A stretch of 64,000 nucleotides of DNA from a virus (taxonomy: Duplodnaviria; Caudoviricetes): IMG/VR virus record IMGVR_UViG_3300027757_000725, positions 1-64,000 of that record; one strand, given 5' to 3'. This document shows positions 8,202 to 62,129 of this stretch, in pieces. Below the pieces are notes generated by a model. It ran no database searches, had not been told where the DNA came from, and saw only the letters and a list, made by a program, of their open reading frames with translations. Both the position numbers and the translations under genes were made by a program. Within the stretch, counting starts at the first letter, position 1; the number at the start of each line of letters is the position of its first letter.

Positions 8202-8738
8202 ATGGAGCCAGAGAAACCATATTGCTTTGTCCATGTTCCTAAGACGGGAGGCACTAGTGTTAGAATGCACCTGCCAAATTCAACGGGTCATAAACGGCTT
8301 TCGAGAGTAGCAGAATCAAAACTTAAAGGTAGGTTTACTTTCGCTTTTGTCAGGAACCCATTCGAAAGATTGGTAAGCGCTTATGAATATTTAAAAGGAG
8401 GTGGGAGAACCCTTGGAGAGAAAAGGCTTGGAAATGAAATTCCTGATACGTTTCCTAAATTTGTGTTTAATCTTAAACAATATATAGACAGGTCCGTACA
8501 TTTAAAACCCATGTGTTATTACTTGGATAAGGAAGTTGATTTTATTGGTCGTTATGAAAACATACAAAATGATTTTAATCATGTGTGCGAGGCTATAAAC
8601 TATCCTATAACTACTATGGTTCATATAAATGAAACAGATTATGGAGATTGGAGGGAATATTATTCAATGACTCAATTAGTTAAGATTGTCGAAAGCTATT
8701 ACAAGGATGACCTTGATCGTTTTGAATATAAATTTTAA
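8202..8738 (+). CDS. Carbohydrate sulfotransferase (Sulfotransfer_2-like)
   Basis: 5'-PSB loop FVHVPKTGGTS and 3'-PB motif FVRNPFERLVSAY. Confidence 0.9.
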   Translation: MEPEKPYCFVHVPKTGGTSVRMHLPNSTGHKRLSRVAESKLKGRFTFAFVRNPFERLVSAYEYLKGGGRTLGEKRLGNEIPDTFPKFVFNLKQYIDRSVHLKPMCYYLDKEVDFIGRYENIQNDFNHVCEAINYPITTMVHINETDYGDWREYYSMTQLVKIVESYYKDDLDRFEYKF

Positions 8739-8752
8739 TAATTAGATTTTTA

Positions 8753-8758
8753 GTGTAA
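8753..8758 (+). promoter_or_regulatory. Putative late promoter GTGTAA
   Basis: 9 nt before ATG 8768. Confidence 0.65.
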
Positions 8759-8767
8759 ATTTATTTC

Positions 8768-10306
8768 ATGAACAAAGATGATTTTGAAGTTTGCCGATTT
8801 AATGGTAAAATCAAAGCTTTAGATAAAGATGATTTTTCTAGTTTTGGTATATCTCAAGCTAGTTTAGATGAAAAGGCTAAAAGCCTTATGCCTAACGAGT
8901 TCAATCCAGAAGACAATATTGATGTTATCCCAGTTGTTTTCAATCTAGCTGTAGTTAACGAATTTAATAAAAATGGAGATGGCATTGATACTGAAACAGC
9001 TATGGCTGCAGTAAAAAGATTTGTAAACAAACCCATAAATGTCGAACACCAAAAACAAAAAATAGTTGGTCACATGATTAATGCGTCCTTCTCTGAGGAG
9101 GAGTTTGATTTTAAAGATAATGACATAAATTCTTACGCTGGGAAAACTGAACCATTTTACATTAATGCTGCTGGCTTTATTTATAGTCATGTGTACCCAG
9201 AGCTAGCTGAAGCAATTTTGGAATCAAGCGACAAGGGTGAAGACGCATACCAGAGCATTTCCACAAGTTGGGAGTTAGCTTTTTCTCAATATAAAATAGC
9301 AGAAGGCTCAAATAAACTTTCCGAGTGTCGAGTTCTGTCAGAATCTGACGCAGAAAAGCAAAAAGAATACGTTAAAGGGTTTGGTGGAGAAGGATTAAAT
9401 TCAGAAGGAAACCCTGTAAATAGGTTGATTGTAGGGAAAACTTACCCATTGGGAGCTGCCCTAACAACAAACCCAGCCGCCAGAGTTAAGGGCATATATA
9501 TGAACAAGAAAGAGATGGACGAAGAGATGGAAGACAAGCAAAATAAAGAGTCTCTCACAATTTATCAAAAAGAAAAAATTTCCCTAAACAACGTAAACCC
9601 TGTAAACAAAGAAAAATTCAATATTTTAAATCATATGACAAAAGAAGAATTCGAAAAGCTCATGGATGGCGTTGCAGAAAATGTAGCTTCCGTAGTAAAG
9701 AAAGACGATCAAGCCAACTCTATTGGTGAGATTATGCGTGATGCTCTCAATGCACACGGAGAAAACTGGAAATCTAAAATTCAACTCGAAACCGAGGCTA
9801 AAGAAAAAGCTCGCGCAGACCTTGAATCCCTTCAAGCCTCTTTTAAAGGCGTTAAGGAAGAATTGGACGGAATTAAAAGCGAAATGGAAGCTAAGGCTTC
9901 TGTAGAACTTTTCAATGACCGCATGAACTTCATCGATCAAACTTACTCTCTCCAAGAGAAAGAGCTTGAGCATGTAGTTGCAGAAATGAAGGGTATCGAT
10001 AATACCAGTGAATCTTTCGAAGCTCTTAAAGATAAGCTAGCTGTTGTATTCTCGCACAGAAACAAAGAAGCTATTGCTAAAGCTGAACAAGAGGTTCAGG
10101 AAAGAGTTGAAGAACTTGTAGCCTCAACTCTTGAGTCTGCCAAAAAGGTTGAATCTGAGGTTTCCGAAGCTTCCGTAGAAGATGAAGATCTTCAAACTAC
10201 CGATGAAGAAACATCAACTATTCCAAATAATACCGCAGAGGCTTCTACCGAAACCTCTCTTGTAGAAAAACTAAAAAACAATTTTCAGGTACAAATTACC
10301 AAATAA
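8768..10306 (+). CDS. Prohead protease / scaffold fusion
   Basis: NKNGDG, PINVEH..IVGH, STSWE and GAALTTNPAA protease-like motifs; acidic coiled-coil C-terminal half. Confidence 0.75.
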   Translation: MNKDDFEVCRFNGKIKALDKDDFSSFGISQASLDEKAKSLMPNEFNPEDNIDVIPVVFNLAVVNEFNKNGDGIDTETAMAAVKRFVNKPINVEHQKQKIVGHMINASFSEEEFDFKDNDINSYAGKTEPFYINAAGFIYSHVYPELAEAILESSDKGEDAYQSISTSWELAFSQYKIAEGSNKLSECRVLSESDAEKQKEYVKGFGGEGLNSEGNPVNRLIVGKTYPLGAALTTNPAARVKGIYMNKKEMDEEMEDKQNKESLTIYQKEKISLNNVNPVNKEKFNILNHMTKEEFEKLMDGVAENVASVVKKDDQANSIGEIMRDALNAHGENWKSKIQLETEAKEKARADLESLQASFKGVKEELDGIKSEMEAKASVELFNDRMNFIDQTYSLQEKELEHVVAEMKGIDNTSESFEALKDKLAVVFSHRNKEAIAKAEQEVQERVEELVASTLESAKKVESEVSEASVEDEDLQTTDEETSTIPNNTAEASTETSLVEKLKNNFQVQITK

Positions 10307-10335
10307 TAAAAAAAATCTAACTTATAAATAAAATT

Positions 10336-10923: not shown

Positions 10924-10937
10924 AATAAATCACGAAC

Positions 10938-12092
10938 ATGAAGATTACAATTAAAAGAACAGAAGATCAATTAGCCCTAGTTCGCGCTATGGCTTCATCA
11001 AATCGTGAAGAGTCTTACGAAGCACAGGCAGCTGTAGCTTCTCTTATTGGACCTGTAGTTAACGAGGTTATTAACAACGCCACCACAATTGGCAACCTCT
11101 TTAGTACAATGACATATGAGTGGGACGACAATCCGTCACTCCCTCTAGACCTCTTCCACGACATTACAGACGAAGATTATATTCAAATTTACTCTCAACA
11201 AGTTGCGGGTGGACTTCCTTATAACCAAGTCTTTCCAGCTCACAATGAGCTTAAATTCAATACCTACACTATTGACAGTGCTCTTGCGTTTGACCGCAAG
11301 TATGCTAGAAAAGCTAGGGTTGATGTTGTCAGCAAAACATTCACAAGAATGGCTCAAGAAGTAATGCTTAAGCAAGAGCGCACAGCGTTCAACGTTTTGG
11401 CTTCCGCTCTCATTAAGGGCAACGGAACCACAAACAAGCGCATTATTTCCTCCAACAACCAAGGTCGCATCATTCTTGATGACCTTAACAGATTGATCAC
11501 TAAATCCAAGCGCATTAATAGCTCTTGGGCTGGTGGTACTCCTGTTGGTGGAGCTAACGTTGGCGTAACTGACCTTATGGTTTCACCAGAGATGGTCGAG
11601 AAGCTTCGCTCAATGTCTTACAACCCAATCAATACTGAAGGTGGTGCAAGAACAGCGGGTAGCTCAAACACCTCTACAGAAAGTGCTGTTAGCGCTCCTG
11701 AGAGCCTTCGTGAGACCCTTTACAGCGGAGCTGGACTCCCTAACTTCTACGGCATCAATATCATTGAAGTCCTTGAAATGGGTATCGAGCAACGTTTCAA
11801 TAAGATCGCCCTTGCAATCGACGCTGGCGATGCCTCTACAGTTACATCTGGTGGACAAGGATCAAGTCCTGACGCTGGCTTCAGTTCAACTGACGAGCTT
11901 CTTATTGGTATCGACCGTAGCAAAGAGTCACTAATCCGCCCAGTCGTTCTTGACGAAGGTGCATCTGACGCGTTCAACGTACAAGTTGACGATCAGTTCT
12001 CCGTACGCCAAGAGAAGATTGGTTGGTTTGGTAAGATTGAAGAGGGTCGCCTCTGCATCGACGATAAAGCCCTTGTGGGAATCGTCGCCTAA
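10938..12092 (+). CDS. Major capsid protein (HK97-like)
   Basis: 384 aa, synteny, strong codon bias, followed by a terminator. Confidence 0.8.
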   Translation: MKITIKRTEDQLALVRAMASSNREESYEAQAAVASLIGPVVNEVINNATTIGNLFSTMTYEWDDNPSLPLDLFHDITDEDYIQIYSQQVAGGLPYNQVFPAHNELKFNTYTIDSALAFDRKYARKARVDVVSKTFTRMAQEVMLKQERTAFNVLASALIKGNGTTNKRIISSNNQGRIILDDLNRLITKSKRINSSWAGGTPVGGANVGVTDLMVSPEMVEKLRSMSYNPINTEGGARTAGSSNTSTESAVSAPESLRETLYSGAGLPNFYGINIIEVLEMGIEQRFNKIALAIDAGDASTVTSGGQGSSPDAGFSSTDELLIGIDRSKESLIRPVVLDEGASDAFNVQVDDQFSVRQEKIGWFGKIEEGRLCIDDKALVGIVA

Positions 12093-12109
12093 TCGCTTAA
12101 AACAATTAC

Positions 12110-33508: not shown

Positions 33509-33510
33509 TT

Positions 33511-35821: not shown

Positions 35822-35851
35822 ATTTATCTGTGTAACTCTTATAGATAACAT

Positions 35852-35880
35852 ATTGTATGATGGAATTAACAAAAATTCAA
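35852..35880 (-). promoter_or_regulatory. Sigma70-type promoter TTGAAT-17-TACAAT for the SSB/GT operon
   Basis: Motif and spacing on the minus strand. Confidence 0.6.
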
Positions 35881-38835: not shown

Positions 38836-38841
38836 TATATA

Positions 38842-41091: not shown

Positions 41092-41092
41092 C

Positions 41093-44259: not shown

Positions 44260-45345
44260 TTAAAATATTTTGTTTAGGATTTTATTGGCTGTGTTTGAAT
44301 ATAAAAACTCATCCTGAAGTTTTAGTCCTTCTTTATTTTCTGTTTTCGATAATTTCAAAGCTCTGTCAATACCATCATTTACACTATTTATATCAATTTT
44401 GGAATATTGACCCTGATTAAATGGAAGACCTTCTTTAAAAAACATATTATCATAGCATGGTTGTTTTCCCGTAGGGTTTACAATTACAGAGTTTTTCTCA
44501 TTTGCCCAGTCTTTGTGAGATGAACAGTTAGTAACAATTGACCACTTACCCAAGGAGGTTGCATTAAATGCGGGAAGATTCCAGCCTTCTCCATTAGAGA
44601 GTCCAGATAAATCAATATCTACAGCATTCATTAATTCATTAACCTCTTCATTTGTTTTTAATCTTGGCAGAAAATTAACATTGGACCAAGACTTTCCTCC
44701 AAGAGATTCTTGTATTAATGAATTGAGTTGTTTTTCTTCAAAAAATGGATTGTGAACTAGACATGTAAGCTGATATTTTGGATTATCCCCAAACCTTCTT
44801 ACCCAAAGGTTTATTAATGCTGCTGTGTTTTTTCTTTTTTCAAATTTTCCTATAAGACCAAAATGAGTTATATCTTCGTCCATATATTTTTTACCTGTTC
44901 TATGAAAGTCTGAATCAAAACCCAATGGTATGTAAGATACATTTTCGCAACCTTTATCAGCGAAAAACTTGGCAGATTCAGATGATGAAAAGAAAACATG
45001 CTCTTGAGATTTAACTATATTAATTTCTTCTTCTGTGGGTGAATCAACCTCGTAGAAAGTATAAAGGTATTGTTTGTCGCCAATTTTTCTTTCCGAACCA
45101 TTTATGTGCCAAACTTTTAAAGTTGGTGTGTTTTTGTTAAGGTTTTTAAGAGCATTCCTTTGTGAATTTTTTAACCATTCTACAAAATCATCATCTACAT
45201 TATTAAATGCGGATAATTCAATAGAATTTCCTGTAGGGAATAGGTTTACTTTTACGCCTTGCTTATAAAGCTCCCTTAATATATTTAGTGATACGTTACC
45301 AAAACTCAAAGAGTTTAATGGACCGTCAAAGTTTAATTCTTTCAT
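44260..45345 (-). CDS. GT4-family glycosyltransferase
   Basis: IPLGFD, GKFEKRKN, EGWNLPAFNATSLGK. Confidence 0.85.
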   Translation of the reverse strand: MKELNFDGPLNSLSFGNVSLNILRELYKQGVKVNLFPTGNSIELSAFNNVDDDFVEWLKNSQRNALKNLNKNTPTLKVWHINGSERKIGDKQYLYTFYEVDSPTEEEINIVKSQEHVFFSSSESAKFFADKGCENVSYIPLGFDSDFHRTGKKYMDEDITHFGLIGKFEKRKNTAALINLWVRRFGDNPKYQLTCLVHNPFFEEKQLNSLIQESLGGKSWSNVNFLPRLKTNEEVNELMNAVDIDLSGLSNGEGWNLPAFNATSLGKWSIVTNCSSHKDWANEKNSVIVNPTGKQPCYDNMFFKEGLPFNQGQYSKIDINSVNDGIDRALKLSKTENKEGLKLQDEFLYSNTANKILNKIF

Positions 45346-45916
45346 TGCTTACTTTTTTTCTAAAATTTTCTATTGTTCTGTTGTGTATATTTATACATCC
45401 TTGGTGTGAAAGATTAGTTTTCTCTGCAACTTTGTTCCAAGGTTTTAGTTTGTTTGATTCACCACCAAAATATCTTTCATTGAATATCAGCCTGACCCTT
45501 TCGTCTTCGTGATCTGATATCATATTTAGTATTCTGTTTAATGTCTCTTCGTAGATACATGTCTCTTCAGGAGTATTATCAGGAGTCTCAATGAAAAAAT
45601 CAACATAATCGTAATTAATTGAAGAGTTTTTTTTGTTTTTTGTCTTTTCAGTTAAGCAAATATACTTAGCTTTGTTGGCTATGTGTGTGGAAAACTTTGC
45701 TCTTGATTCATCATAGTCTAGTGCGGCTTCATATATATTATAATCTTTTTCATCTAAAATTTGCCCCATTTGCGTATAAGATAGGCTTTTAGATCCAAAC
45801 TTTCTGACCATATTTACATATATACCAGAATGTCTGCTTATCAATTCAATTAAAGCCACCTCGTCTCCGAATTCCTTAACCTTTTCTGTTAATTGAGTAT
45901 CGCTAAAAGTGTTCAT
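45326..45916 (-). CDS. Phage sigma70-family sigma factor (second copy)
   Basis: ALIELISRHSG, IYEAALDYDESRAKFSTHI (region 2); HTH KPWNKVAEKTNLSHQGCINIH. Confidence 0.8.
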   Translation of the reverse strand: MNTFSDTQLTEKVKEFGDEVALIELISRHSGIYVNMVRKFGSKSLSYTQMGQILDEKDYNIYEAALDYDESRAKFSTHIANKAKYICLTEKTKNKKNSSINYDYVDFFIETPDNTPEETCIYEETLNRILNMISDHEDERVRLIFNERYFGGESNKLKPWNKVAEKTNLSHQGCINIHNRTIENFRKKVSNERIKL

Positions 45917-45924
45917 TATTTAAT

Positions 45925-45953
45925 AAAATACCAGAGACAGGCAGTAAAGTCAA
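45925..45953 (-). promoter_or_regulatory. Sigma70-type promoter TTGACT-17-TATTTT, 8 nt before the sigma gene ATG
   Basis: Minus-strand motif with TGn extension. Confidence 0.6.
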
Positions 45954-45967
45954 TCTTTATTTTTTTG

Positions 45968-45996
45968 TTGACATGCCCGTATAAAGTTATTATAAT
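45968..45996 (+). promoter_or_regulatory. Perfect consensus sigma70 promoter TTGACA-17-TATAAT
   Basis: TTGACA 45968-45973, TATAAT 45991-45996. Confidence 0.85.
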
Positions 45997-46001
45997 AATT
46001 C

Positions 46002-46110
46002 ATAACGAAACGGTTCCGCCTCACAAGAGTTTCGCCCTTGAAGGTTTCGCTTTAGTGAAGGTTACGTATTATTAATACTCTCTACGTTCGTATTAATAAT
46101 GGTTTTTTTT
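46002..46110 (+). ncRNA. Candidate structured small RNA (~105 nt)
   Basis: Bounded by the consensus promoter and a hairpin plus T8; several internal stems; no ATG-initiated ORF. Confidence 0.5.
46068..46110 (+). terminator. Hairpin ATTATTAATAC/GTATTAATAAT followed by GG and T8
   Basis: Perfect 11-bp inverted repeat (AT-rich, so weak). Confidence 0.55.
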
Positions 46111-46278
46111 AGAAAAAAACATTAATTTGGGGAAGTTTTATTTCGATATTTTTTATGCGTTTTATTCTTGATTTATTAGAATAATTCCGTATGCTCAGTG
46201 TAAATTAAGTCAGCGAACACCCTTGAGAGCATTTTTAGCTATATTCGCTTTATTAACCTACAAATTAAATATTAAAAC

Positions 46279-47256
46279 ATGAGCATATTCGAAGAGCAAG
46301 TATCAAGAAAACCTAATAATTACCCGTGGGCTGAAGAATTTATTGAAGTTATGCATAATGGCTTCTGGACTGACAAAGAATTCAGTTTTTCTTCTGATGT
46401 TCAAGACTTCCATATAACAATGGACGATCAACAAAGGGAAATAATTATAAGAACTCTTTCTGCTATTGGTCAAATCGAAGTTGCTGTTAAAAAATTCTGG
46501 GCTAAACTGGGAGATAATTTACCACACCCATCTCTTACTGACCTTGGTTATGTGATGGCTAACACGGAGGTTATTCATAACAATGCTTATGAAAGACTGC
46601 TTAAGGTTCTTGGTTTGGAAGATGTTTTCGAAGAAAACTTAAAGTTGGATTTTATTGAGGGTCGTGTTAATTATTTGCGTAAATATACACATAGGTTCTA
46701 CAAGGATTCTAAGAAGCAGTATTTGTATGCGCTTATTTTGTTTACGTTGTTCGTGGAGAATGTTTCTTTAATGAGCCAGTTTTACGTTATTAATTGGTTC
46801 TCCAGAAACAAAAACGTACTCAAGGATACAGAACAGCAGGTAAGATATACAAGAAACGAAGAAAACATTCATGCTCAAGTAGGAATTAAGATCATTAATA
46901 CCATAAGAGAAGAGCATCCAGAGCTTTTCGACGAGGAGCTTGAAGAGCGTATTATGCAAGAGGCTGAACAAGCTTATGTTGCAGAAGCTAAAATTATTGA
47001 TTGGATGGTTAACGGAATTAATGAAGAAGGATTAAGCGCTCCACTACTAAAAGAGTTTATTAAATCTAGGATTAATGATTCACTTGAACAAATTTCATTT
47101 AAGAAGGCTTTTGATGTTGACAATAATGTGATTAAAGATACAATGTGGTTTGAAGAGGAGTTAATGGGAAACAATTCCACAGACTTTTTCCACTCTCGTC
47201 CTGTAGAGTATTCAAAGAAATCACAAACATTCGATCTAGAAAGCGTATTTGCATGA
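46279..47256 (+). CDS. nrdB: Ribonucleotide reductase beta subunit, class Id-like
   Basis: E67, K71, E97-x2-H100, Y104, ENVSL and EENIH ferritin-like ligands. Confidence 0.95.
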   Translation: MSIFEEQVSRKPNNYPWAEEFIEVMHNGFWTDKEFSFSSDVQDFHITMDDQQREIIIRTLSAIGQIEVAVKKFWAKLGDNLPHPSLTDLGYVMANTEVIHNNAYERLLKVLGLEDVFEENLKLDFIEGRVNYLRKYTHRFYKDSKKQYLYALILFTLFVENVSLMSQFYVINWFSRNKNVLKDTEQQVRYTRNEENIHAQVGIKIINTIREEHPELFDEELEERIMQEAEQAYVAEAKIIDWMVNGINEEGLSAPLLKEFIKSRINDSLEQISFKKAFDVDNNVIKDTMWFEEELMGNNSTDFFHSRPVEYSKKSQTFDLESVFA

Positions 47257-48923
47257 AAAAATATTATTGGAACAACAAAACATCACAACAAATTTTAAAC
47301 AGAGGTTATCTTGACGGCGAAAGCTTAATTAGTCGGGTATTGAGCGTCGGGGAATCATTTCAGAAAGACTTCCAGTCTAGAGCTCCCGCCGAACACAAAG
47401 GTAAGTTTTCCGACCTGTGTGAAAAGTTTGAGCATTACATGTCTCTTGGATTCTTTTCTTTATCTAGCCCTGTTTGGGCTAATTATGGAAGAGATAGGGG
47501 TTTGCCTGTTTCTTGTAATGGCGTTTTTGTGCCTGATACAATGGAGGGAATTTTGACAAAGCAGTCCGAAGTCGGTATGCAAACTAAGCATGGTGCTGGA
47601 ACTTCTGGTTATTTTGGTGATCTCAGAGGCAGGGGTAAGTCAATTAGCACAGGAGGAAGCTCATCTGGCTCGGTTCACTTCATGGAGTTGTTTGACAAGG
47701 TGACTTCAGTGGTATCTCAGAGTAGTGTGCGAAGAGGTTCTTTCGCTGCCTATCTCCCTGTCGATCACCCAGATATCGAAGAGTTTCTCCGTATTAGATC
47801 TGATGGACATCCTATTCAGGATTTATCGTTTGCTGTCACCATTACAGACGAATGGATGGAGGATATGAAAGGCGGAGACATTGATAAGCGAAAGATCTGG
47901 GCTAAGATTGTTCAGAAGAAGTTTGAATCAGGCTACCCCTATTTATTTTTCCAAGATACCGCGAACAAGAACGCTCCTCAAGTCTATAAAGATAAAAACA
48001 TGAAGATTTATGCTTCTAATCTTTGTAACGAAATTGCGCTACCTTCCTCACCAGAAGAGTCGTTTGTCTGTTGTTTATCTTCTCTTAATTTGGAGAGGTG
48101 GGATGAGATTGTTAAGACCGATGCTATTGAAACAATGGTTTACTTTCTTGATTCGGTAATGGAGGAGTATATCAATAAGACTGAGGATATTCCTTATATG
48201 GAATTTGACCACAACTTTGCAAAACGCCATAGGGCTTTGGGAATGGGTGTTCTTGGTTGGCATTCTTATTTGCAAGACAATATGGTTTCTTTTGAAAGCA
48301 TGGAAGCAAAGATGAAAAATGCTGAAATTTTTAGAACAATCAGAGAAAGAGCGGACAAAGCCACCGAAGAACTAGCCAAGGTCTTTGGAGAACCAGAAGT
48401 ATTGAAAGGTTATGGTCGCAGAAATACAACAACAATGGCTGTTGCTCCTACAACTACAAGTTCACTTATACTAGGTCAAGTATCTCAAGGGATTGAGCCT
48501 ACTGTCAATTATTATACAAAGAATTCTGCAAAAGGAAAATTTACAATTAGAAGTCCTCACCTAGAGAGATTACTTGAATCTAAAGGTAAAAATACGGAAG
48601 CTGTATGGAAATCTATTCTTGTTAAGGACGGTTCAGTTCAACACTTGGGCTTTCTCGACGAACACGAAAAAGATGTATTTAAAACATTTTCAGAAGTATC
48701 CCAGAAAGAGATTGTAATACAAGCCTCCCAACGCCAGAAATATATTGATCAAGGACAGTCGTTGAACTTAATGGTTCACCCTAAAGCTTCTCCAAAGGAA
48801 GTTAGTGATCTTATGATTTTAGGTTGGGAGATGGGTCTTAAAGGGTTTTATTATCAAAGAAGCACAAATCCAAGTCAGGCTCTCGCTCAATCCATCATGG
48901 AATGTCAGTCCTGCGAGGGTTGA
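47253..48923 (+). CDS. nrdA: Ribonucleotide reductase alpha subunit (short, no ATP cone)
   Basis: LPVSC, RRGS, SNLCNE, APTTTSS, DQGQSLN, YY and C-terminal CQSCEG. Confidence 0.95.
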   Translation: MKKYYWNNKTSQQILNRGYLDGESLISRVLSVGESFQKDFQSRAPAEHKGKFSDLCEKFEHYMSLGFFSLSSPVWANYGRDRGLPVSCNGVFVPDTMEGILTKQSEVGMQTKHGAGTSGYFGDLRGRGKSISTGGSSSGSVHFMELFDKVTSVVSQSSVRRGSFAAYLPVDHPDIEEFLRIRSDGHPIQDLSFAVTITDEWMEDMKGGDIDKRKIWAKIVQKKFESGYPYLFFQDTANKNAPQVYKDKNMKIYASNLCNEIALPSSPEESFVCCLSSLNLERWDEIVKTDAIETMVYFLDSVMEEYINKTEDIPYMEFDHNFAKRHRALGMGVLGWHSYLQDNMVSFESMEAKMKNAEIFRTIRERADKATEELAKVFGEPEVLKGYGRRNTTTMAVAPTTTSSLILGQVSQGIEPTVNYYTKNSAKGKFTIRSPHLERLLESKGKNTEAVWKSILVKDGSVQHLGFLDEHEKDVFKTFSEVSQKEIVIQASQRQKYIDQGQSLNLMVHPKASPKEVSDLMILGWEMGLKGFYYQRSTNPSQALAQSIMECQSCEG

Positions 48924-49463: not shown

Positions 49464-49498
49464 AACCTCTCTAAGTTTTATTCTTAGAGGGGTTTTTT
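49464..49498 (+). terminator. Rho-independent terminator after hsp20
   Basis: AACCTCTCTAAG-loop-CTTAGAGGGGTT then Ts. Confidence 0.85.
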
Positions 49499-49538: not shown

Positions 49539-50225
49539 ATGTCGCTGCTAGATCAGTTTACAGATTACAAAAAAAACAACACAAAAACAAAATGCTTAAT
49601 TTTGAGTTGTGGTCCATCTTTAAATGGAATAACAAAAGAAAAAGTCAAAGAACTATCTAAAGATCACGTTATAGTAACAATAAAACAATCTTATATAGAG
49701 TTTGGCGACTATAGTGATTTCCAATTTTTTAACTGCAACAATATAATTAAATACGAAAGAAATAAGGCAAAGTTTATTTATTGCTCTCCATCTATGTCAT
49801 CCAATCTTAAAAATCAAAACATAGATATGTACTTTCCAATGTCAGAGTATAACCTTAAAAAAAGACTCTGCCATTTTGAAAATTTAGAAGAATATTTTTC
49901 AATGAATAACATTGGTAAATTTTTTGGGGCTGGTATTATGTTTGAAATAGTACTTCCTTTTGTTTATAATCTTGGAGTGAATGAGATACTAACAGTAGGA
50001 TGGGATTATCACAAAAAAGATGGTAAATACAGTCATTTTTATAAAAATTCTGATAGTAATTCTTTTTTAAATCCAGCTAATCCTCTATTTCTGGGAGAAA
50101 ATGAAGAGTCAATCAACAACAGCAGCAGAGTAAATTCATTTTTTTTATTAAATGGAGTTAATTTATCTTGTGTTGAAAGCAAAGAATGTTTTTTGCATGA
50201 ATCTATAACTAGAGTTTCTTTATGA
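49539..50225 (+). CDS. Maf/DUF115-like (sialyltransferase-fold) sugar transferase
   Basis: CLILSCGPSL and YNLGVNEILTVGWDY...HFY motifs. Confidence 0.65.
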   Translation: MSLLDQFTDYKKNNTKTKCLILSCGPSLNGITKEKVKELSKDHVIVTIKQSYIEFGDYSDFQFFNCNNIIKYERNKAKFIYCSPSMSSNLKNQNIDMYFPMSEYNLKKRLCHFENLEEYFSMNNIGKFFGAGIMFEIVLPFVYNLGVNEILTVGWDYHKKDGKYSHFYKNSDSNSFLNPANPLFLGENEESINNSSRVNSFFLLNGVNLSCVESKECFLHESITRVSL

Positions 50226-50977
50226 GTGATAATAAATTTAATATACAAGACACAATCAAACGTCTGTTTCATAAAAACCTAATTGGAATCAAACAATCAT
50301 TTGAAGATGAAGGTGGTCTCCTAGAAGATATAAGGGAAATCAGAAAAGTAACTCAGGTAAATGAATTAAAACTAAGTGTCAAAATAGGTGGCTGCGAGGC
50401 AAAATCTGACATATATCAATGTAAACTAATGGGTGTCGACGGAATTGTTGCTCCTATGATTGAAACAGAATTTGCATTACAAAAATTCACAGAAGCCGTA
50501 TCAAACATTGCCAATATTAAATTTTATATAAACATTGAGAGTAAGACTGGCTATGAAAACATAGATAAAATATTAGATTCTCCATCATCAAAAATGTTGT
50601 CAGGCGTAGTGGTTGGAAGATCCGATCTAGTTAAATCATACGGACATGATAAATCATTTGTTAATTCAGATTTTATCTTTGATAAAACTCATGAGATAAT
50701 GAAAAAAGCAAAGTCTTACGGACTGGAAACCCTAATGGGAGGTAACCTATCACCTGACAGTTTTGATTTTATTTCTAAGCTTAAAAAAGAAGAATTGATT
50801 GATTACGTAGAAACAAGAAATACAATTATTAAGGTTGATAACATTTCTGAATTAAAGGATGACATAATTTCAGCGCTTGAATTTGAATCTATTTTGTTGG
50901 ATTTCAAATACAGAAAATACAAAGAAATTTCAGAAGAGTATTATTCCCGTTCTGAGACTCTAAAACAAAGACTGTAA
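50222..50977 (+). CDS. HpcH/HpaI aldolase / citrate lyase family protein
   Basis: DGIVAPMIET, INIES..G.ENI..I, VVVGRSDLVKSYG. Confidence 0.8.
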   Translation: MSDNKFNIQDTIKRLFHKNLIGIKQSFEDEGGLLEDIREIRKVTQVNELKLSVKIGGCEAKSDIYQCKLMGVDGIVAPMIETEFALQKFTEAVSNIANIKFYINIESKTGYENIDKILDSPSSKMLSGVVVGRSDLVKSYGHDKSFVNSDFIFDKTHEIMKKAKSYGLETLMGGNLSPDSFDFISKLKKEELIDYVETRNTIIKVDNISELKDDIISALEFESILLDFKYRKYKEISEEYYSRSETLKQRL

Positions 50978-50991
50978 ATTAAACAATTGCC

Positions 50992-51651
50992 ATGAGTAGA
51001 AAAAAAATAACTGCAGTAATACCCATCAGGAAAGGTTCCCAAAGAGTTCCTTACAAAAATTTTAAAAACTTTCACAAAGGTAAGTCTTTATTGCAGATCA
51101 AAATAGAATTTTTAAAAGAAATAGATTTAATCGACAATATTACTGTTAATACAGATTCAGATGTAGCAATCGATATAGCAAAAAACCTCGGCGTTTCATA
51201 TTTTCTCAGAGATGATTATTATGCAAGTTCAGAATGCTCTCAATCAGAATTTTTTAGTAACCTAGCGGAGACAACAGATACAGACATTATAATTCATGCG
51301 CCTTGTACTTCTCCTATGATTAAAAAACAAACAATTATAGATGCTATTAATAGATTCAATATTTCAAAAAATGATTCTTGTAATTCTGTAGGCTTGGTAA
51401 AAGAGTATTTATGGAGAGATGGTAAACCTCTAAACTATAATATAGAAAAAGGTCAAGTTCCAAATAGTCAAAATTTACCTGACATTAAAAAACTTACTTT
51501 TGGGTTTGGTATTATTGGGAAAGAAACTATGCTTGATAGGCAGAACGTTGTCGGTGAAAACCCCCTTCTGTATATATTAGATGAAGACGAGCAAATTGAT
51601 ATTGATACTAAAATTGATTTTGAGTTTGCTAAATTTTTATATAAAAAGTAA
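50992..51651 (+). CDS. Acylneuraminate/ulosonate cytidylyltransferase (NeuA-like)
   Basis: IPIRKGSQRVPYKN, VNTDS, TSP, IDIDT..DF. Confidence 0.9.
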   Translation: MSRKKITAVIPIRKGSQRVPYKNFKNFHKGKSLLQIKIEFLKEIDLIDNITVNTDSDVAIDIAKNLGVSYFLRDDYYASSECSQSEFFSNLAETTDTDIIIHAPCTSPMIKKQTIIDAINRFNISKNDSCNSVGLVKEYLWRDGKPLNYNIEKGQVPNSQNLPDIKKLTFGFGIIGKETMLDRQNVVGENPLLYILDEDEQIDIDTKIDFEFAKFLYKK

Positions 51652-52046
51652 TGACCTTAAAAGAATATACAAAGCTGCAAGAGATTGAAAACAATAATCA
51701 GATAGCTATAGATTTTGATGGAGTAATACACAAAAATTCCAAAGGTTTTTTCGACGGTACTGTATATGATAATCCCATTGAAGGTTCTCTTGATGCAATC
51801 AAAGAGATAAGCAAAAGGTTTGATATAATTATATTTACAGCCAAGGCTTCCAAAGACAGACCTTTAATCAATGGAAAGACGGGTAAAGAGCATGTTGTTG
51901 ATTGGCTAAAGGAAAATGGTTTTTATAAATATATTAAAGATGTAGTTGTAGAAAAACCTAGAGCTGTTTTGTATATAGATGACAAAGCTTTTAGATTTGA
52001 AAATTGGGTTAAAACCAATGATTTTGTTTCTAGTATAAATACTTGA
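51651..52046 (+). CDS. Small HAD-superfamily phosphatase
   Basis: IAIDFDGVI, IFTA, KP..LYIDDKA. Confidence 0.85.
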   Translation: MTLKEYTKLQEIENNNQIAIDFDGVIHKNSKGFFDGTVYDNPIEGSLDAIKEISKRFDIIIFTAKASKDRPLINGKTGKEHVVDWLKENGFYKYIKDVVVEKPRAVLYIDDKAFRFENWVKTNDFVSSINT

Positions 52047-52083: not shown

Positions 52084-52908
52084 ATGGAAACAATAGTATC
52101 AGTATTTTGCATTTGGAGGGACAGCGAAGAAAATATATTAAGAACCCTAAAACAGTTAGAAGACTTAGAAAAATTAAGCACTTTTTCTTTTTCTTACTTT
52201 TTTTATGAGAATGATTCTAAAGATAAAACTAGAGAAATTTTAGAGAACTGGATGAAAAAAAGGTCAGGTGTTTTTTTATCTGAAGATTTAAATGAAGTAA
52301 AATTTGGCAGCACAACAGATCCACAAAGAATGAAACTTCTTTGTGAATGTAGGAACAAGTGCAAAAATTTAGCGGGAGAAAATAATTCTAATATCTCATT
52401 AATTATAGATTCAGACATAAAGTTTGATACTGATAATTTTCTCATGCAAATTTCGGATTTAAACAAACTTGATTCTGCAGTAATGATTACAGCAAATGTT
52501 AGGCAAAACATAAAAGACTTAGTTTTTAATGAGTCAGAAGACTCTTATTATGATGTTTATGCATTCAGAGATGAGCACGGCACTAATGGTATGTATTTCT
52601 CCGACTGTCCATCTTATAAAAGTTCAGATCAAAAATCTTGGAGTGAAGGTCGTCCAATCATTACAATGTCTTCATTCGGCGGTTTTGCTGTTTTAAAATC
52701 AGAAGTTTTTAATAAAGTACGTTGGTACTCTGACATACATTGCGATCACGTTAACATGTGTTTTGATATATCTAAACATGGCAGAATATATTGCGAACCC
52801 AAAAGCAAGGTGTATGTAGAAATTGATTTGTCTAATCTAAACCTAGATTCGTGTAAACAAATAGGTATACAACAAAGACAAAAATATGAACAGTTTTTTA
52901 AAACCTAA
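52084..52908 (+). CDS. GT-A glycosyltransferase (CAP59/Anp1-like)
   Basis: YENDSKD, IIDSDI (DxD), YYDVYAFRD, SSFGG, CDH. Confidence 0.7.
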   Translation: METIVSVFCIWRDSEENILRTLKQLEDLEKLSTFSFSYFFYENDSKDKTREILENWMKKRSGVFLSEDLNEVKFGSTTDPQRMKLLCECRNKCKNLAGENNSNISLIIDSDIKFDTDNFLMQISDLNKLDSAVMITANVRQNIKDLVFNESEDSYYDVYAFRDEHGTNGMYFSDCPSYKSSDQKSWSEGRPIITMSSFGGFAVLKSEVFNKVRWYSDIHCDHVNMCFDISKHGRIYCEPKSKVYVEIDLSNLNLDSCKQIGIQQRQKYEQFFKT

Positions 52909-53539
52909 GTTGGTTATAGTCACTTCAGTAATAGATCCAGTATTGTCAAATCTTCGCAGTAGCAATAGAAGCCTTTTTAAAAAAGAGAAGCGCTTTGAGC
53001 AAACAAAAGTTACCTTGGGTAGTTTATCGGCAATTAAAAACAAAAAAATTTTATTTATAGAAGCCACTGATATAGATGAGTACATGGAAGAATATATATT
53101 AGATCATGTAGATTACTATGTAAACACAAAAAATGTAGACTGGGTCACAGGCGGTGTTAACTCTCCGTGGAAATGTATTGGCGAAGCTAGAATGATAGAA
53201 CACGGGTTAAAGTTTCATAGTTTAACTGAATATAATTCTGTTTTCAAAATAAGCGGAAGATATTATATTAGTAAGGACTTTCAAGCCGAGAGGCAAAACG
53301 TACAAAATTCGGTATTTTCACACCAAAATAAAGGAGCACATTGGAATTCAACTTTTTTTTATAAAATTTGTGAAGAACATTTTGAGGTTTACCAACAATG
53401 CCTTGCTCATTGTTCTAATGCGAGAGGTGTAATGGAAAGGCGTTTTTTCAATTTTTTTAGAGACACTGATTGTATATATGTCCCAAAATTTGGTGTTTGC
53501 GGTTGGGCAGGACCAACAGGAGGATTTTACTGTTGGTAA
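52886..53539 (+). CDS. Hypothetical protein, likely glycosyltransferase-related
   Basis: VTSVI..RFEQT..GEA..FKISGRY pattern; inside the sugar cluster. Confidence 0.45.
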   Translation: MNSFLKPKLVIVTSVIDPVLSNLRSSNRSLFKKEKRFEQTKVTLGSLSAIKNKKILFIEATDIDEYMEEYILDHVDYYVNTKNVDWVTGGVNSPWKCIGEARMIEHGLKFHSLTEYNSVFKISGRYYISKDFQAERQNVQNSVFSHQNKGAHWNSTFFYKICEEHFEVYQQCLAHCSNARGVMERRFFNFFRDTDCIYVPKFGVCGWAGPTGGFYCW

Positions 53540-53600: not shown

Positions 53601-54629
53601 ATGAAGAAAGTAATAATCACAGGAGTAACAGGTCAAGATGGAAGTCACATGGCGGACTATTTGCTGGCGAACACCGACATCGAGATCATTGCGGGTGTAC
53701 GACGACTTTCTGTAAAGAACCACGAAAATATTGAGCACCTAGAAGAGAACCCAAGATTCAAACTAATTGATCTTGATGTTACAGATCAGCATAATGTAAA
53801 CAGGGTAATCTTGCAAGAAAAACCAGATTACTTTATCAACTTCGCCGCCAATTCATTTGTTGGTACTAGCTGGAAAATGCCAGTCAACCACATGGAAACA
53901 AACTGCATGGCGGTTTTATATCAACTTTGTGCTATTGCTGAACATGCTCCTAATTGCCGTTACTACAATGCTGGAAGCTCGGAAGAGTTTGGTGACGTTG
54001 TTACTTCTCCGCAGGATGAGACGCATCCACTGCGCCCCAGAAGCCCTTACGGAGCATCTAAGGCTGCAGCTAGACACTTAGTAAAAGTGTGGCGTGAAAG
54101 TTACAATTTATACGCCATTCAGGGATGGTTATTTAATCACGAAGGCGTTCGTCGTGGAGAAGAGTTTCTTACCCGCAAAGTAACAAAAGGAGTCGCAGAT
54201 ATTTTTTGTAAAGACAGTATCGGAGATAAATTCAAACCCCTTCAACTTGGAAACCTTGAAGCAAAGCGAGACTGGTCTGATGCGGAGGACTTTATTGATG
54301 GTATTTGGAAAATGTTAAATAAAGAAGAACCAAAAGAATACGTTCTAGCTTCTGGCAAAACACATACCATTCGAGAATTTGTAGAAGCAGCTTTTGCTTG
54401 CGCTGGCTATGGAGCAGAGGAGTGTCATTGGGAAGGCGAGTCAGTCCATGAAGAATATCTTCATGGCGACAAAATACTCGTTCAAGTAAATTCAGAATTT
54501 TACAGACCTGCAGAGGTTGAACTTTTACTCGGTGACCCTACCTTGGCAGAAAGAGAGCTTGGCTGGGAAAGGAAAACAGATTTCTACGGCTTAGTCAAAA
54601 AGATGGTTGACAACGATATCAATTTATGA
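53601..54629 (+). CDS. gmd: GDP-mannose 4,6-dehydratase
   Basis: ITGVTGQDGS, SSEEFG, PRSPYGASK, LFNHE, GNLEAKRDW, RPAEVELLLGD. Confidence 0.95.
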   Translation: MKKVIITGVTGQDGSHMADYLLANTDIEIIAGVRRLSVKNHENIEHLEENPRFKLIDLDVTDQHNVNRVILQEKPDYFINFAANSFVGTSWKMPVNHMETNCMAVLYQLCAIAEHAPNCRYYNAGSSEEFGDVVTSPQDETHPLRPRSPYGASKAAARHLVKVWRESYNLYAIQGWLFNHEGVRRGEEFLTRKVTKGVADIFCKDSIGDKFKPLQLGNLEAKRDWSDAEDFIDGIWKMLNKEEPKEYVLASGKTHTIREFVEAAFACAGYGAEECHWEGESVHEEYLHGDKILVQVNSEFYRPAEVELLLGDPTLAERELGWERKTDFYGLVKKMVDNDINL

Positions 54630-60773: not shown

Positions 60774-60776
60774 GAT
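60748..60776 (+). promoter_or_regulatory. Sigma70-type promoter TTGACA-17-TAAGAT
   Basis: 8 nt before ATG 60785. Confidence 0.7.
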
Positions 60777-60784
60777 GGTGAATC

Positions 60785-61483
60785 ATGATACCATTATTTA
60801 AAACTCATTACAGTATAGGTAAGTCAATACTTACGGCTGAATCTATTTTGAACATAGCTAAAGATAATAACTTAAAAGAAGTTGTTGTTGTTGAGGATTC
60901 TTTCTATGGATTTAGATCTTTAAACAAGACATTTAAAGAAGAAAATATAAAATTCATTTTTGGGATTAGACTGCCCGTTGTTCAGAATCATAACGATTCT
61001 GAATCCAGACCAAGTAAGCTTATATTTTTTGCTAAAAACAACAACGGTGTCAAAAAAATAAAAAAGCTCTATACAGACGCTTTTACAAGCGATTATAAAT
61101 CAGTGTCTATTTCAGATTATGATATTGATTTTTTTAAAGACGTTAAAGTTTCTGTTCCTTTTTATGATTCTTACATTTATGAAAACCTATTTCATTTTGG
61201 TATGTCTTCTATAGATTTGTCTTCAATAGATCATTCATTTTTCGTAGAAGATAACGACCACCCGTTTGACTTTCAAATAAAAAGAGCTATAGAAGGCTTA
61301 AGTGAGAATACCTTAAAGGTTAAGAGTATTTACTATGAGAAAAAAGAGGATTTCCATGCCTTTCAGATGTACAAGTCAGTTTGTTCTCGCAAGCAAGGTA
61401 GACCACCCACTTTTAGTAATCCAAATATAAATCACTTTTGTTCAGAAGAGTTTTGTTGGGAGTCTTACTTAGAAAGAAATTAA
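60785..61483 (+). CDS. Stand-alone, degenerate PHP domain of DNA Pol III alpha
   Basis: FKTHYSIGKSI, FIFGIRL, LIFFAKNNNG match the DnaE N-terminal pattern. Confidence 0.75.
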   Translation: MIPLFKTHYSIGKSILTAESILNIAKDNNLKEVVVVEDSFYGFRSLNKTFKEENIKFIFGIRLPVVQNHNDSESRPSKLIFFAKNNNGVKKIKKLYTDAFTSDYKSVSISDYDIDFFKDVKVSVPFYDSYIYENLFHFGMSSIDLSSIDHSFFVEDNDHPFDFQIKRAIEGLSENTLKVKSIYYEKKEDFHAFQMYKSVCSRKQGRPPTFSNPNINHFCSEEFCWESYLERN

Positions 61484-61484
61484 A

Positions 61485-62129
61485 ATGAAGAAAGTAGCTT
61501 TTGTTGGTCACTGCCATTGCTTTGGTTTTGCTTACTATTTTAGTAAGCTATTTCCAGATGTTGAGGTTGCTTGCATCTTACCTAAAATTTACAGAAAAGA
61601 TAAATGGTATAGCTTTGTGCCAAAATCTTTGCTAATAGAAAATTTAATAATAGAAGATTTTCATGAAGCAACTCGCTATTTAAAAGATTGTGACCATGTA
61701 TTTACTGCGAATATAGGAGAGCCAGAATGTTCTCTTTACACAACTGATATAATTAGAGATTACTTAAATAAAAATGCAAAACTAATAATAATTACTGGCA
61801 TTATGTGGAATAAATCTGACACAATTAGGAAACTACGTCTTTTGGAACACTCTGCTAAATTTAAAAATAGAAATATTCACATGTCAGAACAAATCGATTT
61901 TGATTCTTTTTTTGGTTTGTGGAACATTGTTAATAAATTTCCAAGAAGTAAGATTATGCAGGACTATGACGAAAGTTTAAACCCAACCTCAAGTTGGTGT
62001 ACGCCCTTGTTTTATTTAGAATCATTGAGAGAGTTTTGTCAAGTCTACAACAAGCCGTTTTTTGACCAAGAGACTTATAATTCCTTGGTTGACAATATCT
62101 TTCCATACAACCATAAGTGTTTAAATTAG
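61485..62129 (+). CDS. Possible WcbI-like polysaccharide-modification protein
   Basis: N-terminal KVAFVGHCH resembles the WcbI GNCQ motif; weak. Confidence 0.35.
   Translation: MKKVAFVGHCHCFGFAYYFSKLFPDVEVACILPKIYRKDKWYSFVPKSLLIENLIIEDFHEATRYLKDCDHVFTANIGEPECSLYTTDIIRDYLNKNAKLIIITGIMWNKSDTIRKLRLLEHSAKFKNRNIHMSEQIDFDSFFGLWNIVNKFPRSKIMQDYDESLNPTSSWCTPLFYLESLREFCQVYNKPFFDQETYNSLVDNIFPYNHKCLN

Follow-up and report, generated by a model that had tools for sequence, protein, structure and literature searches.

Soluble glycan enzymes in three evolutionary tiers in an uncultured marine tailed phage, with its own distal tail proteins as a possible acceptor

The window analysed here, a stretch of 64,000 nt (IMGVR_UViG_3300027757_000725, positions 1-64,000), comes from an uncultured marine tailed phage (Caudoviricetes) of a siphovirus-like clade whose portal and terminase are SPbeta-like. 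Among its approximately 57 ORFs there are 11 glycan genes, which is far more than phages usually carry. An earlier note on this DNA had listed about 12 carbohydrate-related genes spread over the window, and 11 of these 12 calls were upheld by Pfam, PHROG, structure and profile searches. The same note regarded them as one genome-wide system. The genes are real, but judging from related loci the toolkit is not one co-inherited unit and falls into three tiers which differ in evolutionary behaviour. Tier 1, the clade core, comprises a four-gene block, Gmd and a GT4-like gene that follows a sigma-like gene; tier 2, located between Hsp20 and Gmd, is a glycan island of hypervariable content that holds in this phage an ulosonate cassette and two GT-A-like genes; tier 3 consists of singleton insertions, including a sulfotransferase. 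None of the glycan enzymes of the window has a transmembrane segment, all of them being soluble, and no polytopic membrane protein was found in a complete 139-kb relative, so that flippase, polymerase and ligase are all missing from what the phage itself encodes. What is directly observed is the family or fold to which each enzyme belongs, the core/island/singleton structure and the lack of membrane glycan machinery.

The clade-core GT4-like glycosyltransferase (361 aa; 44260-45345, minus strand) matches phrog_2170 (7e-21) and the PDB GT1 chain 5i45 (5.6e-4), while PF00534 (7.7e-4) stays below the cut-off. It shares 47-64% identity with its relatives and 36-38% with the distant subclade and is, together with Gmd, kept in all informative relatives. 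The leftward operon is headed by a sigma-factor-like regulator (45326-45916, minus strand; phrog_36, phrog_248) with a helix-turn-helix-like C-terminus which resembles sigma region 4 (by eye only), and a sigma-70-like site (TTGACT-17-TATTTT) is located upstream of this gene (45916). Downstream of the GT4-like gene a conserved 127-aa protein is encoded (43875-44258, minus strand; 45-63% identity in relatives) that weakly matches phrog_385, a 'transcriptional regulator'. In one relative, the complete one, dNMP-kinase-like and dUTPase/DCD-like genes are found upstream in the GT operon. Transcription of the conserved GT-B genes, which lie behind SSB-like and sigma-like genes, runs against that of the structural genes, and the GTGTAW motif that precedes the portal, tape-measure and fibre genes is missing before the GT-B genes, an arrangement which speaks against the virion as their target.

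The four-gene block (SSB-like, GT4 with Zn-ribbon, GT9-like and a 259-aa protein) occurs in 79 of 79 related loci; by group, the counts are 43 of 43 for the near loci and 35-36 of 36 for the distant ones. Its first gene encodes the SSB-like protein (35222-35821, minus strand), recognized by the C-terminal tip motif D-x-D-V-P-F, which is kept in 12 of 13 homologues and aligns with the tail DDDLPF of the phage ul36 SSB; no OB-fold match was detectable in the body of the protein. As judged from sequence, its true start is probably 35821 and not 35872, and the homologues in relatives start at MK(F/H)TLYKPN. The following GT4 glycosyltransferase (574 aa; 33511-35235, minus strand; PF00534 2e-7, above the cut-off; phrog_2170 2e-20), with at least 591 relatives in IMG/VR, contains a four-Cys Zn-ribbon insert with conserved C270, C273, C288 and C291. 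For the GT9-like GT-B protein (378 aa; 32372-33508, minus strand), which was assigned by Foldseek and hhalign, there is no Pfam match. The best Foldseek matches of its AF2 model are WaaC, WaaF, 3tov and other GT9 chains (E 5.6e-5), and in hhalign it matches E. coli WaaF 193-310 (E 5e-4), its N-terminal part resembling the C-terminal nucleotide-sugar domain of heptosyltransferases. Residues 471-528 of the GT4 match WaaF 2-59 (hhalign, E 7.8e-5), so this C-terminal piece resembles the start of the GT9 N-domain. The hhalign probabilities of these GT9/heptosyltransferase similarities are 31-62%, that is, weak. A GT9-like enzyme is apparently split over two adjacent genes and partly fused to the GT4. 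The 378-aa protein and the 574-aa C-terminus find their best structural and profile matches in WaaC and WaaF, the GT9 heptosyltransferases of the LPS core, and the autotransporter heptosyltransferases TibC and Aah illustrate that beta-helical adhesins can be O-glycosylated in the cytoplasm by enzymes of the GT9 fold. The window proteins differ from all four in their weak similarity, in the apparent split over two genes and in the fusion to a GT4. The GT9-like protein shares only 29-36% identity with its relatives, in comparison to 55-62% for its neighbours in the block. The last gene encodes a conserved 259-aa protein (31606-32385, minus strand), which 78 of the 79 related loci contain and for which Pfam, PHROG and PDB gave no match. 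A Sak/Rad52 reading of this protein, suggested by an Atlas lead (0.89), was rejected, as hhalign against the phage ul36 Sak did not support it.

Three large genes (992, 749 and 925 aa; 35857-43870, plus strand) sit between the two leftward glycosyltransferase blocks and were assigned as putative fibre genes by size, position and one beta-roll domain, a match to LbR_Ice_bind (PF21300) in 38842-41091. Relatives have a single short fibre-like gene at the same place. A fibre gene borders the four-gene block in the window's subclade, and large ORFs still converge on the block in the distant loci; the 39 ORFs sampled there on both sides of it include seven Phage-tail_3, two BppL_N, one Phage_tail_L and two beta-roll matches. 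By these assignments, the block always abuts predicted distal tail genes across the related loci. [S/T]-G is enriched in the fibres (p = 4e-3 to 4e-8) and in baseplate proteins too. This enrichment is real but probably explained by the N-x-V-[S/T]-G turn of the beta-roll, and thus is not taken as a sequon signal. Neither a mucin-like Ser/Thr tract nor, on the capsid candidate, a Ser/Thr-rich C-terminal extension was found; this lack of an acceptor tract is a further point against the virion.

Gmd (GDP-mannose 4,6-dehydratase; 53601-54629, plus strand; PF16363 9e-101) shows 56-79% identity in most relatives and 45-52% in the distant subclade, and in the relatives it always lies just 5' of Zn-ribbon and RecA-like genes. 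The island next to it contains, on the plus strand, a short DUF115 protein with a sialyltransferase fold (49539-50225; PF01973 below the cut-off). Foldseek matches of its AF2 model (pLDDT 90.8) are Cst-I, Cst-II, GT29, MptE and Maf; its family of 89 proteins is mostly unnamed and metagenomic, and viral look-alikes include Mimiviridae GT29. It is a candidate CMP-ulosonate transferase. It is accompanied by an HpcH/HpaI-type class II aldolase (50222-50977; PF03328 6.7e-10, above the cut-off), a candidate for the ulosonate-forming step whose sugar role is read from context only, a CMP-sugar cytidylyltransferase of the KdsB/NeuA type (50992-51651; PF02348 3e-14, above the cut-off) and a small HAD-type phosphatase (51651-52046; phrog_1238 3.7e-16) with a visible motif I (DFDGV, for DxDGV). 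The ulosonate genes are tightly packed into an overlapping cassette. It is followed by a CAP59-like GT-A glycosyltransferase (52084-52908; PF11735 1.3e-7, above the cut-off), of which a 46% homologue adjoins a DUF115 homologue in the related locus L127, and by a virus-specific GT-A-like protein of 217 aa (52886-53539). The latter is a lead from structural neighbours only, Atlas clusters bearing GT2 and GT8 (TM 0.68-0.71), the nearest of which are virus-only and include Nucleocytoviricota.

In 12 relatives the island measures 3-6.8 kb, and its content is unrelated between phages. These islands are rich in FkbM methyltransferases, GT2, GT1, SDR epimerases, NeuB, and pyruvyl-, sulfo- and O-methyl-transferases, which are terminal decorations typical of exposed glycans. 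A Pfam search of the window found no second enzyme downstream of Gmd in the pathway; three of 64 island ORFs of the relatives belong to the SDR epimerase/dehydratase class and could supply the post-Gmd step. The complex anionic glycan with sulfate, ulosonate and deoxyhexose that had been proposed is a fair inference for this genome, because Gmd and the enzymes of a CMP-ulosonate branch and of sulfation are all present, but, judging from the related loci, ulosonate branch and sulfation are strain-specific extras and not features of the clade. In giant viruses, sugar-nucleotide enzymes and glycosyltransferases likewise occur in clade-specific variable clusters around a conserved core, as seen with the chlorovirus Gmd and the Megavirinae glycan clusters. 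A further likeness lies in the Nucleocytoviricota relatives of the DUF115 fold and of the 217-aa GT-A-like protein. However, giant viruses have eukaryotic hosts and glycans shown on capsid or fibrils, whereas the present system belongs to a phage of bacteria.

The compact Sulfotransfer_2 sulfotransferase (178 aa; 8202-8738, plus strand; PF03567 3.8e-13, above the cut-off; phrog_3347 7e-22) has both PAPS motifs visible (PKTGGTS, RNPFERLVS). Its location in the head operon holds, as it lies directly 3' of the portal-like gene and before the next head gene, but it is a singleton: it is missing from 62 of 62 related loci, where the flanking head genes are 15-27 bp apart, and only five of 50,697 phage records contain homologues. 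Being unique to this genome it does not make sulfation a clade property, and this uniqueness also counts against the virion. The second singleton is an orphan ORF (61485-62129, plus strand) without a Pfam or PHROG match, whose sole match among 5.8 billion proteins is itself and which is missing in relatives, where PHP and exonuclease genes adjoin. For these reasons its former identity as a possible WcbI-like gene was dropped.

We infer the catalytic steps, the feeding of the tiers into one product and the acceptor as follows. Gmd would convert host GDP-mannose to GDP-4-keto-6-deoxymannose, the entry to 6-deoxyhexoses, and the three GT-B enzymes (GT4-like, GT4 with Zn-ribbon, split GT9-like) would build a basal glycan. 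Aldolase, HAD phosphatase and cytidylyltransferase would yield a CMP-activated 3-deoxy-2-ulosonate for transfer by the short sialyltransferase-fold protein, the two GT-A-like enzymes would attach further sugars, and the sulfotransferase, co-transcribed with the portal gene, would sulfate the product with host PAPS. Distal tail, baseplate or fibre proteins of the phage itself would be glycosylated in the cytoplasm before assembly. We favour this reading tentatively, at somewhat short of an even chance; the virion proposed earlier is a reasonable guess to that degree. Direct glycosylation of proteins in the cytoplasm needs no flippase, polymerase or ligase, and none is encoded. Mycobacteriophage glycans on capsid and tail-tube subunits are a precedent (as quoted in PMC12619734), and according to citing papers these phages also use phage-encoded soluble glycosyltransferases and show that cytoplasmic glycosylation of phage structural proteins is possible (Freeman et al. 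2023). As described there, these glycans are placed on C-terminal extensions, whereas no such extension is seen on the capsid candidate here.

It is very improbable that the GT4/GT9-like pair with its Zn-ribbon modifies phage DNA as in T-even and hypermodified phages. DNA glycosylation by GT-B enzymes is known from many phages (PMC13326640; Pyle et al. 2024, through a citing paper), and the window shares with T4-type DNA glucosylation and arabinosyl-5hoC systems (PMC13326640) the position of GT-B genes near nucleotide-metabolism and DNA-binding genes. The Zn-ribbon insert and the dNMP-kinase-like and dUTPase/DCD-like genes of the complete relative fit as well, and so does the GT pair's linkage, seen in 78 of 79 loci, with the SSB-like gene. 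However, CCGG occurs 0 times in the window against 38.5 expected and GGCC 4 times against 53, and one relative has CCGG once (172 expected), no GTAC (180 expected) and lacks many 6-mers. Restriction sites containing every base are thus strongly purged, which speaks against global protection of any base. Four related IMG/VR phage records and the contig of the complete relative, which encodes a normal ThyX, were searched for a ThyA-like hydroxylase or hydroxymethylase without a match; a Tet/JBP search, run without a positive control, was empty. Because of the purging and the lack of a ThyA-like enzyme on relatives, DNA seems an unlikely acceptor, and we know of no methyl, pyruvyl, sulfo or ulosonate decorations on DNA. 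Less improbable, though still unlikely, is the absence of a single product: four-gene block, Gmd island and sulfotransferase would then be separate morons or auxiliary genes aggregated in hot spots, each with an acceptor of its own or with no acceptor shared between them. The three tiers do evolve differently, sulfotransferase and 61485 ORF are singleton insertions, the enzyme following Gmd is missing from the window, and glycan and fibre genes both accumulate in plastic regions of phage genomes. Against this, Gmd is core and always beside the island, L127 again has DUF115 and CAP59-like homologues side by side, and the ulosonate genes are tightly packed.

Remodelling of the host envelope is doubtful but the more serious alternative. 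Here the soluble enzymes would act at the inner membrane face on lipid A-core, LOS or undecaprenyl-linked intermediates, and host MsbA or Wzx would export the altered glycan; superinfection exclusion, less loss of progeny on debris, or altered grazer recognition could result. Classically, enzymes of the GT9, GT4 and Cst types are peripheral and act on lipid A-core, LPS or LOS, a route for which the phage need not supply a flippase. Among solved structures the nearest relatives are indeed LPS/LOS enzymes (WaaC, WaaF, Cst-I/Cst-II), a KdsB/NeuA-type cytidylyltransferase and Gmd are present, the lack of transmembrane segments fits such soluble or peripheral classes, and operon context and sigma-70-like promoter suggest early or middle expression. 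On the other hand, neither an integrase nor a lysogeny gene turned up in the window, merely masking a receptor would not obviously call for hypervariable capping-type decorations and virus-only enzyme families, and the sole hint to a host is one contig binned into a Flavobacteriaceae MAG. To our knowledge, it has not been shown by experiment that a virulent phage remodels the LPS of its host with a gene set of this kind. Host remodelling is the standard reading of the similar 'LPS / cell-wall synthesis and modification' islands of P-SSM2, S-SCSM1 and S-SCSM2R. These large marine phages carry numerous soluble glycosyltransferases, NDP-sugar dehydratases/epimerases and Kds-type genes in plastic regions, and the acceptor is usually guessed to be the host surface (PMC12801897). 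The window phage differs from these cyanophages in its lineage, siphovirus-like with SPbeta-like portal and terminase, in the invariant four-gene block tied to an SSB-like gene, in an ulosonate cassette based on an aldolase instead of KdsA or NeuB, and in the sulfotransferase inside the head operon. The sequence itself does not separate virion proteins from host lipid-linked or LPS-type acceptors. If the distal tail, baseplate or fibre proteins are the acceptor, as we tentatively favour, related phages would present different surface 'serotypes'.

The carbohydrate-related genes of this phage fall into three tiers, a clade core, a hypervariable island and singleton insertions, and this architecture is well established. 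The earlier note had described a genome-wide glycan toolkit of about 12 genes; comparison with relatives shows the toolkit to be real and unusually rich, and to consist of these three tiers rather than of one system. Eleven of the 12 gene calls are borne out. Family matches are clear for the sulfotransferase, the 574-aa GT4, the HpcH aldolase, the cytidylyltransferase, the CAP59-like GT-A and Gmd, and more sensitive methods support the 361-aa GT4-like protein, the small HAD phosphatase, the 378-aa GT9-like protein, the DUF115 protein and the 217-aa GT-like ORF. The twelfth, called WcbI-like, is an orphan ORF of 214 aa (61485-62129) without a family match. In a set of 5.8 billion proteins it has no homologue but itself; the same sequence is found on 11 contigs, the longest of 119,448 bp.

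The sulfotransferase matches PF03567 (Sulfotransfer_2) with 50.6 bits (cut-off 22), and its translation contains HVPKTGGTSV and RNPFERLVSAY, the 5'-PSB (PKxGxT) and 3'-PB (RxPxxRxxS) motifs of PAPS binding. The DUF115 protein reaches only 25.1 bits against PF01973 (DUF115/MptE-like), below the cut-off of 34.6, and about a third of its homologues carry a precomputed PF01973 label. Its model (pLDDT 90.8) has the sialyltransferase-type fold common to Cst-I/II, GT29 and Maf: the match to Cst-I has an E-value of 7.9e-4 and a TM-score of 0.47, and Cst-II, GT29 and Maf (5mu5) are among the other matches. An H-F-Y at residues 166-168 is conserved at the sequence level. Structurally, the 217-aa GT-like ORF has its neighbours among GT2 and GT8 clusters and among virus-only families.

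These genes lie within part of a large tailed phage genome. The terminase (3826-5739), a portal-like gene (6216-8201, profile match to SPbeta YonE, E 7.7e-4), a highly conserved capsid candidate (10938-12092) and a tape measure of 1830 aa are followed by tail and fibre genes, and the replication and nucleotide module comprises class I RNR, Hsp20, RecA-like, DnaB, primase, nuclease, PHP, exonuclease and Pol III alpha genes. The terminase is closest to those of SPbeta-like Staphylococcus phages and of Bacillus phages (22-24% identity), and a complete relative encodes YopX proteins; together with the YonE match, this makes the head module look distantly SPbeta-like. Pfam and PHROG scans gave no match for most head and tail proteins, PDB profile searches with the capsid candidate, a 512-aa head protein, the 259-aa protein of the block described below and the DUF115 protein were empty or insignificant, and a search for related loci with a 460-aa tail protein found none.

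In 50,697 phage records, searched at the nucleotide and protein level, neither the structural region nor the capsid candidate, the 259-aa protein or the SSB-like protein had a match, and from these searches the phage appears to have no close cultured relative and to belong to an uncultured clade. This clade is large, with 184 terminase relatives in IMG/VR, and we call it marine on the basis of Tara Oceans source labels among the homologues, not of sample metadata. The first contig (CAZDRR010000001.1, here G005:C1) of a MAG labelled Candidatus Saccharibacteria is a complete, collinear relative, 138,977 bp long, whose ends overlap by 55 bp, and a shorter one, the 30-kb fragment CAKZOO010000042.1, sits in a Flavobacteriaceae MAG. 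Both placements are probably binning artefacts, the latter being at best a weak hint at the host. The window and the complete relative differ in their RNR at the same genomic position: the former encodes a class I enzyme (NrdB and NrdA, 46279-48923), the latter a single RNR with a B12-dependent class II insertion domain (45179-47182 of G005:C1).

The clade core includes a leftward block of four genes (35821 to 31606) encoding an SSB-like protein, the 574-aa GT4, the GT9-like protein and the 259-aa protein. Among loci sampled from at least 591 IMG/VR matches, the block is intact in all 43 near and in 35-36 of 36 distant ones. The first protein ends, after a low-complexity Q/P/K linker, in D-x-D-V-P-F, which is kept in 12 of 13 homologues and is characteristic of the tip of SSB tails in bacteria and phages. 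We infer the name SSB-like from this C-terminal tip only, as the body of the protein gave no OB-fold match and no similarity to T7 gp2.5 or the ul36 SSB. The real start of this ORF (35222-35872) is probably 35821 and not 35872, since the relatives begin at MK(F/H)TLYKPN; with the later start the gene would no longer overlap the divergent fibre gene, which begins at 35857. For the 259-aa protein an Atlas lead pointed to a Sak/Rad52 annealing protein, but hhalign against the ul36 Sak gave no support for this.

The two glycosyltransferase genes of the block (32372-35235, minus strand) keep their arrangement in all 79 related loci. The 574-aa GT4 (33511-35235) contains a Zn-ribbon insert with four conserved cysteines (C270, C273, C288, C291), and its residues 471-528, within the last 100 or so, align to residues 2-59 of WaaF, while residues 43-147 near the start of the next gene product (378 aa, 32372-33508) align to residues 193-310 in the C-domain of WaaF. 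Because these matches, each weak alone, are complementary, a GT9-like enzyme appears to be split over the two genes. The CAZy GT9 signature PF01075 belongs to a single-chain GT-B, and no Pfam GT9 match was found here. With the GT9-like model, whose pLDDT is only 68.6, WaaC, WaaF and 3tov occupy Foldseek ranks 1-4, 21 and 30 (probability 1.0, about 196 columns).

In the complete relative, dNMP-kinase-like and dUTPase/DCD-like genes precede the block operon, and in distant loci large ORFs convergent with the block are still found next to it. Of 39 ORFs taken from either side of the distant blocks, seven match Phage-tail_3, two BppL_N, one Phage_tail_L and two the beta-roll. The block thus has its conserved place where distal tail genes meet replication or nucleotide genes. 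A second group of leftward genes (45916 to 43875: sigma-like, GT4-like and a 127-aa protein) is also conserved. Between the two groups lies one short fibre-like gene in the subclade of the window, and three large putative fibre genes (35857-43870) in the window itself. Gmd is likewise always present in the relatives, directly ahead of the Zn-ribbon and RecA-like genes.

The second tier is the stretch from Hsp20 to Gmd, which measures 3-6.8 kb and has a different gene content in each of 12 relatives. The 64 island ORFs from ten relatives are mostly FkbM methyltransferases, GT2, GT1 and SDR epimerases/dehydratases, with single examples of NeuB, a pyruvyl transferase, a cytidylyltransferase, a sulfotransferase and a rhamnosyl O-methyltransferase. 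The complete relative has GT1, GT2, UDP-GlcNAc 2-epimerase and a Polysacc_synt_2 dehydratase, and the version in the window is the ulosonate cassette (DUF115, HpcH aldolase, cytidylyltransferase and HAD phosphatase, 49539-52046) plus two GT-A-like genes. The DUF115, cytidylyltransferase and CAP59-like proteins have only distant homologues, in a few relatives. Immediately ahead of the cassette, after Hsp20, lies a strong intrinsic-terminator-like hairpin (49464-49494, 12 pairs and a T-run), and the 44 bp upstream of 49539 contain no convincing promoter.

The third tier consists of singletons. The sulfotransferase occurs in none of the 62 related loci in which both of its neighbours are present, the two neighbours being 15-27 bp apart there, and homologues of its family occur in only five of the 50,697 phage records. 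The ORF at 61485 is also an insertion, as the flanking PHP and exonuclease genes abut in most relatives. By this comparison, sulfation and the ulosonate genes are accessories at the level of the strain and not features of the clade. The anionic, deoxyhexose-containing product proposed in the earlier note is a reasonable expectation for this genome, and for this genome only. A literature search on nonulosonic acids in phages found nothing useful.

That the glycan is attached to the phage DNA is very improbable. Restriction palindromes that between them contain every base are heavily purged: CCGG occurs 0 times in the window (38.5 expected) and GGCC 4 times (53 expected), while in G005:C1 CCGG is found once (172 expected), GTAC 0 times (180 expected), and nine 6-mer palindromes, ATCGAT, GGATCC and TCTAGA among them, are absent. 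Such purging would be unexpected if a base were globally hypermodified and therefore argues against DNA as acceptor. The purged sites differ between the window and G005:C1, suggesting different host restriction repertoires. In known glycosylated DNAs a ThyA homologue supplies the hydroxyl acceptor (PMC13326640). A ThyA-like hydroxymethylase/hydroxylase (PF00303) was not found in the records of four related phages, of which one is 94% complete, in a search whose controls worked; the sole PF00303 match in the MAG with the complete relative is on another contig, none being on the phage contig, and this relative has an ordinary ThyX. A search for TET enzymes (PF12851), run without a positive control, was empty. 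These phages thus differ from T4-like DNA glycosylation in two features, the hydroxyl-supplying enzyme and weak selection against restriction sites. The methyl, pyruvyl, sulfo and ulosonate decorations, moreover, point to an exposed glycan, and DNA is unlikely as acceptor.

We favour, tentatively, the virion, and specifically distal tail and fibre proteins, because the block keeps its place beside tail-tip genes, the island is hypervariable, and there are virus-only enzyme families and precedents in giant viruses and mycobacteriophages. Outside these two groups virion glycosylation is not known to have been demonstrated. None of the glycan enzymes in the window has a TM segment, no window ORF of at least 100 aa except the tape measure is TM-rich, and the complete relative has no protein with more than three TM-like segments and no polytopic membrane protein. 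The phage therefore seems to lack machinery of its own for export or polymerisation, in contrast to a self-contained Wzx/Wzy or ABC polysaccharide locus with its initiating phosphoglycosyltransferase, flippase or transporter, and polymerase or ligase, all of them polytopic membrane proteins. This agrees with a direct glycosylation of virion proteins in the cytoplasm, and just as well with an action on lipid A-core/LOS that the host exports; the nearest solved enzymes, WaaC, WaaF and Cst-II, act on lipid A-core/LOS. LPS-type remodelling of the host envelope is possible but somewhat less probable, and the two acceptors cannot be separated from sequence. That the tiers are unrelated modules without a single product we regard as unlikely. 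The GT operons are oriented away from the structural genes. GTGTA(A/T) lies 10-30 nt before the portal gene, the genes at 8768, 12178 and 15131, the tape-measure gene and the first fibre gene (sites at 5775, 6202-6217, 8753, 12157, 15100, 18372 and 35830) and before no glycan operon; as an enriched late-promoter motif it was rejected, with 49 occurrences in the window against 53 expected, and gives weak context only; the timing of expression would be compatible with either acceptor. A sigma-70 promoter scan was not above shuffles.

Unlike the mycobacteriophage proteins with Ser/Thr-rich C-terminal acceptor extensions on capsid or tail tube, the capsid candidate (10938-12092) has no such extension. 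There are no mucin-like tracts, and no head or tube candidate has a 20-aa stretch with more than 11 Ser/Thr. A real and specific enrichment of [S/T]-G exists in only five window proteins (27055-29195 and 35857-43870) and four large proteins of the relative (among them G005:C1 30977-33099, 39906-41459 and 68917-71463), with p from 4e-3 to 2e-10. By position or by homology to those of the window these are mostly baseplate or fibre proteins, the exception being an 848-aa protein of the relative. Of the glycines, 40% come after Ser/Thr, against 11-22% for other residues, and in the enriched proteins 32-72% of glycines are preceded by Ser/Thr (17-24% expected), whereas T4 gp34-37 lie at the expected 17-20%. 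As the context is phi-[S/T]-G-[D/S/E] and one fibre matches the grass antifreeze beta-roll family PF21300, a structural repeat, probably a beta-roll turn motif, is the simpler explanation, and we set [S/T]-G aside as a glycosylation sequon.

Several GTs and NDP-sugar enzymes in a variable region of a large marine phage also characterize the LPS/cell-wall modification islands of cyanophage type (PMC12801897), and similar gene sets have long been known in marine cyanophages (PMC12801897). For the question of what the many GT and sugar-nucleotide genes in large aquatic phages act on, this clade offers a clean comparative system, with a small invariant GT module in hundreds of contigs, a core Gmd and an island that changes between close relatives. 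The most far-reaching interpretation, put forward as possible though far from secure, is that an abundant, uncultured lineage of marine siphophages, with at least 591 IMG/VR loci, adds a glycan to its own distal tail or fibre apparatus through the invariant GT4/split-GT9 pair and the core Gmd, and diversifies this glycan by the hypervariable island, here with a non-canonical aldolase-derived ulosonate and sulfate. If the acceptor is the host envelope, these genes would represent a takeover function widespread among virulent marine phages. If it is the virion, surface glycans would be a variable trait affecting adsorption, defence evasion and the fate of particles in the sea, and with self-glycosylation phage virion "serotypes" would evolve as bacterial O-antigens do.
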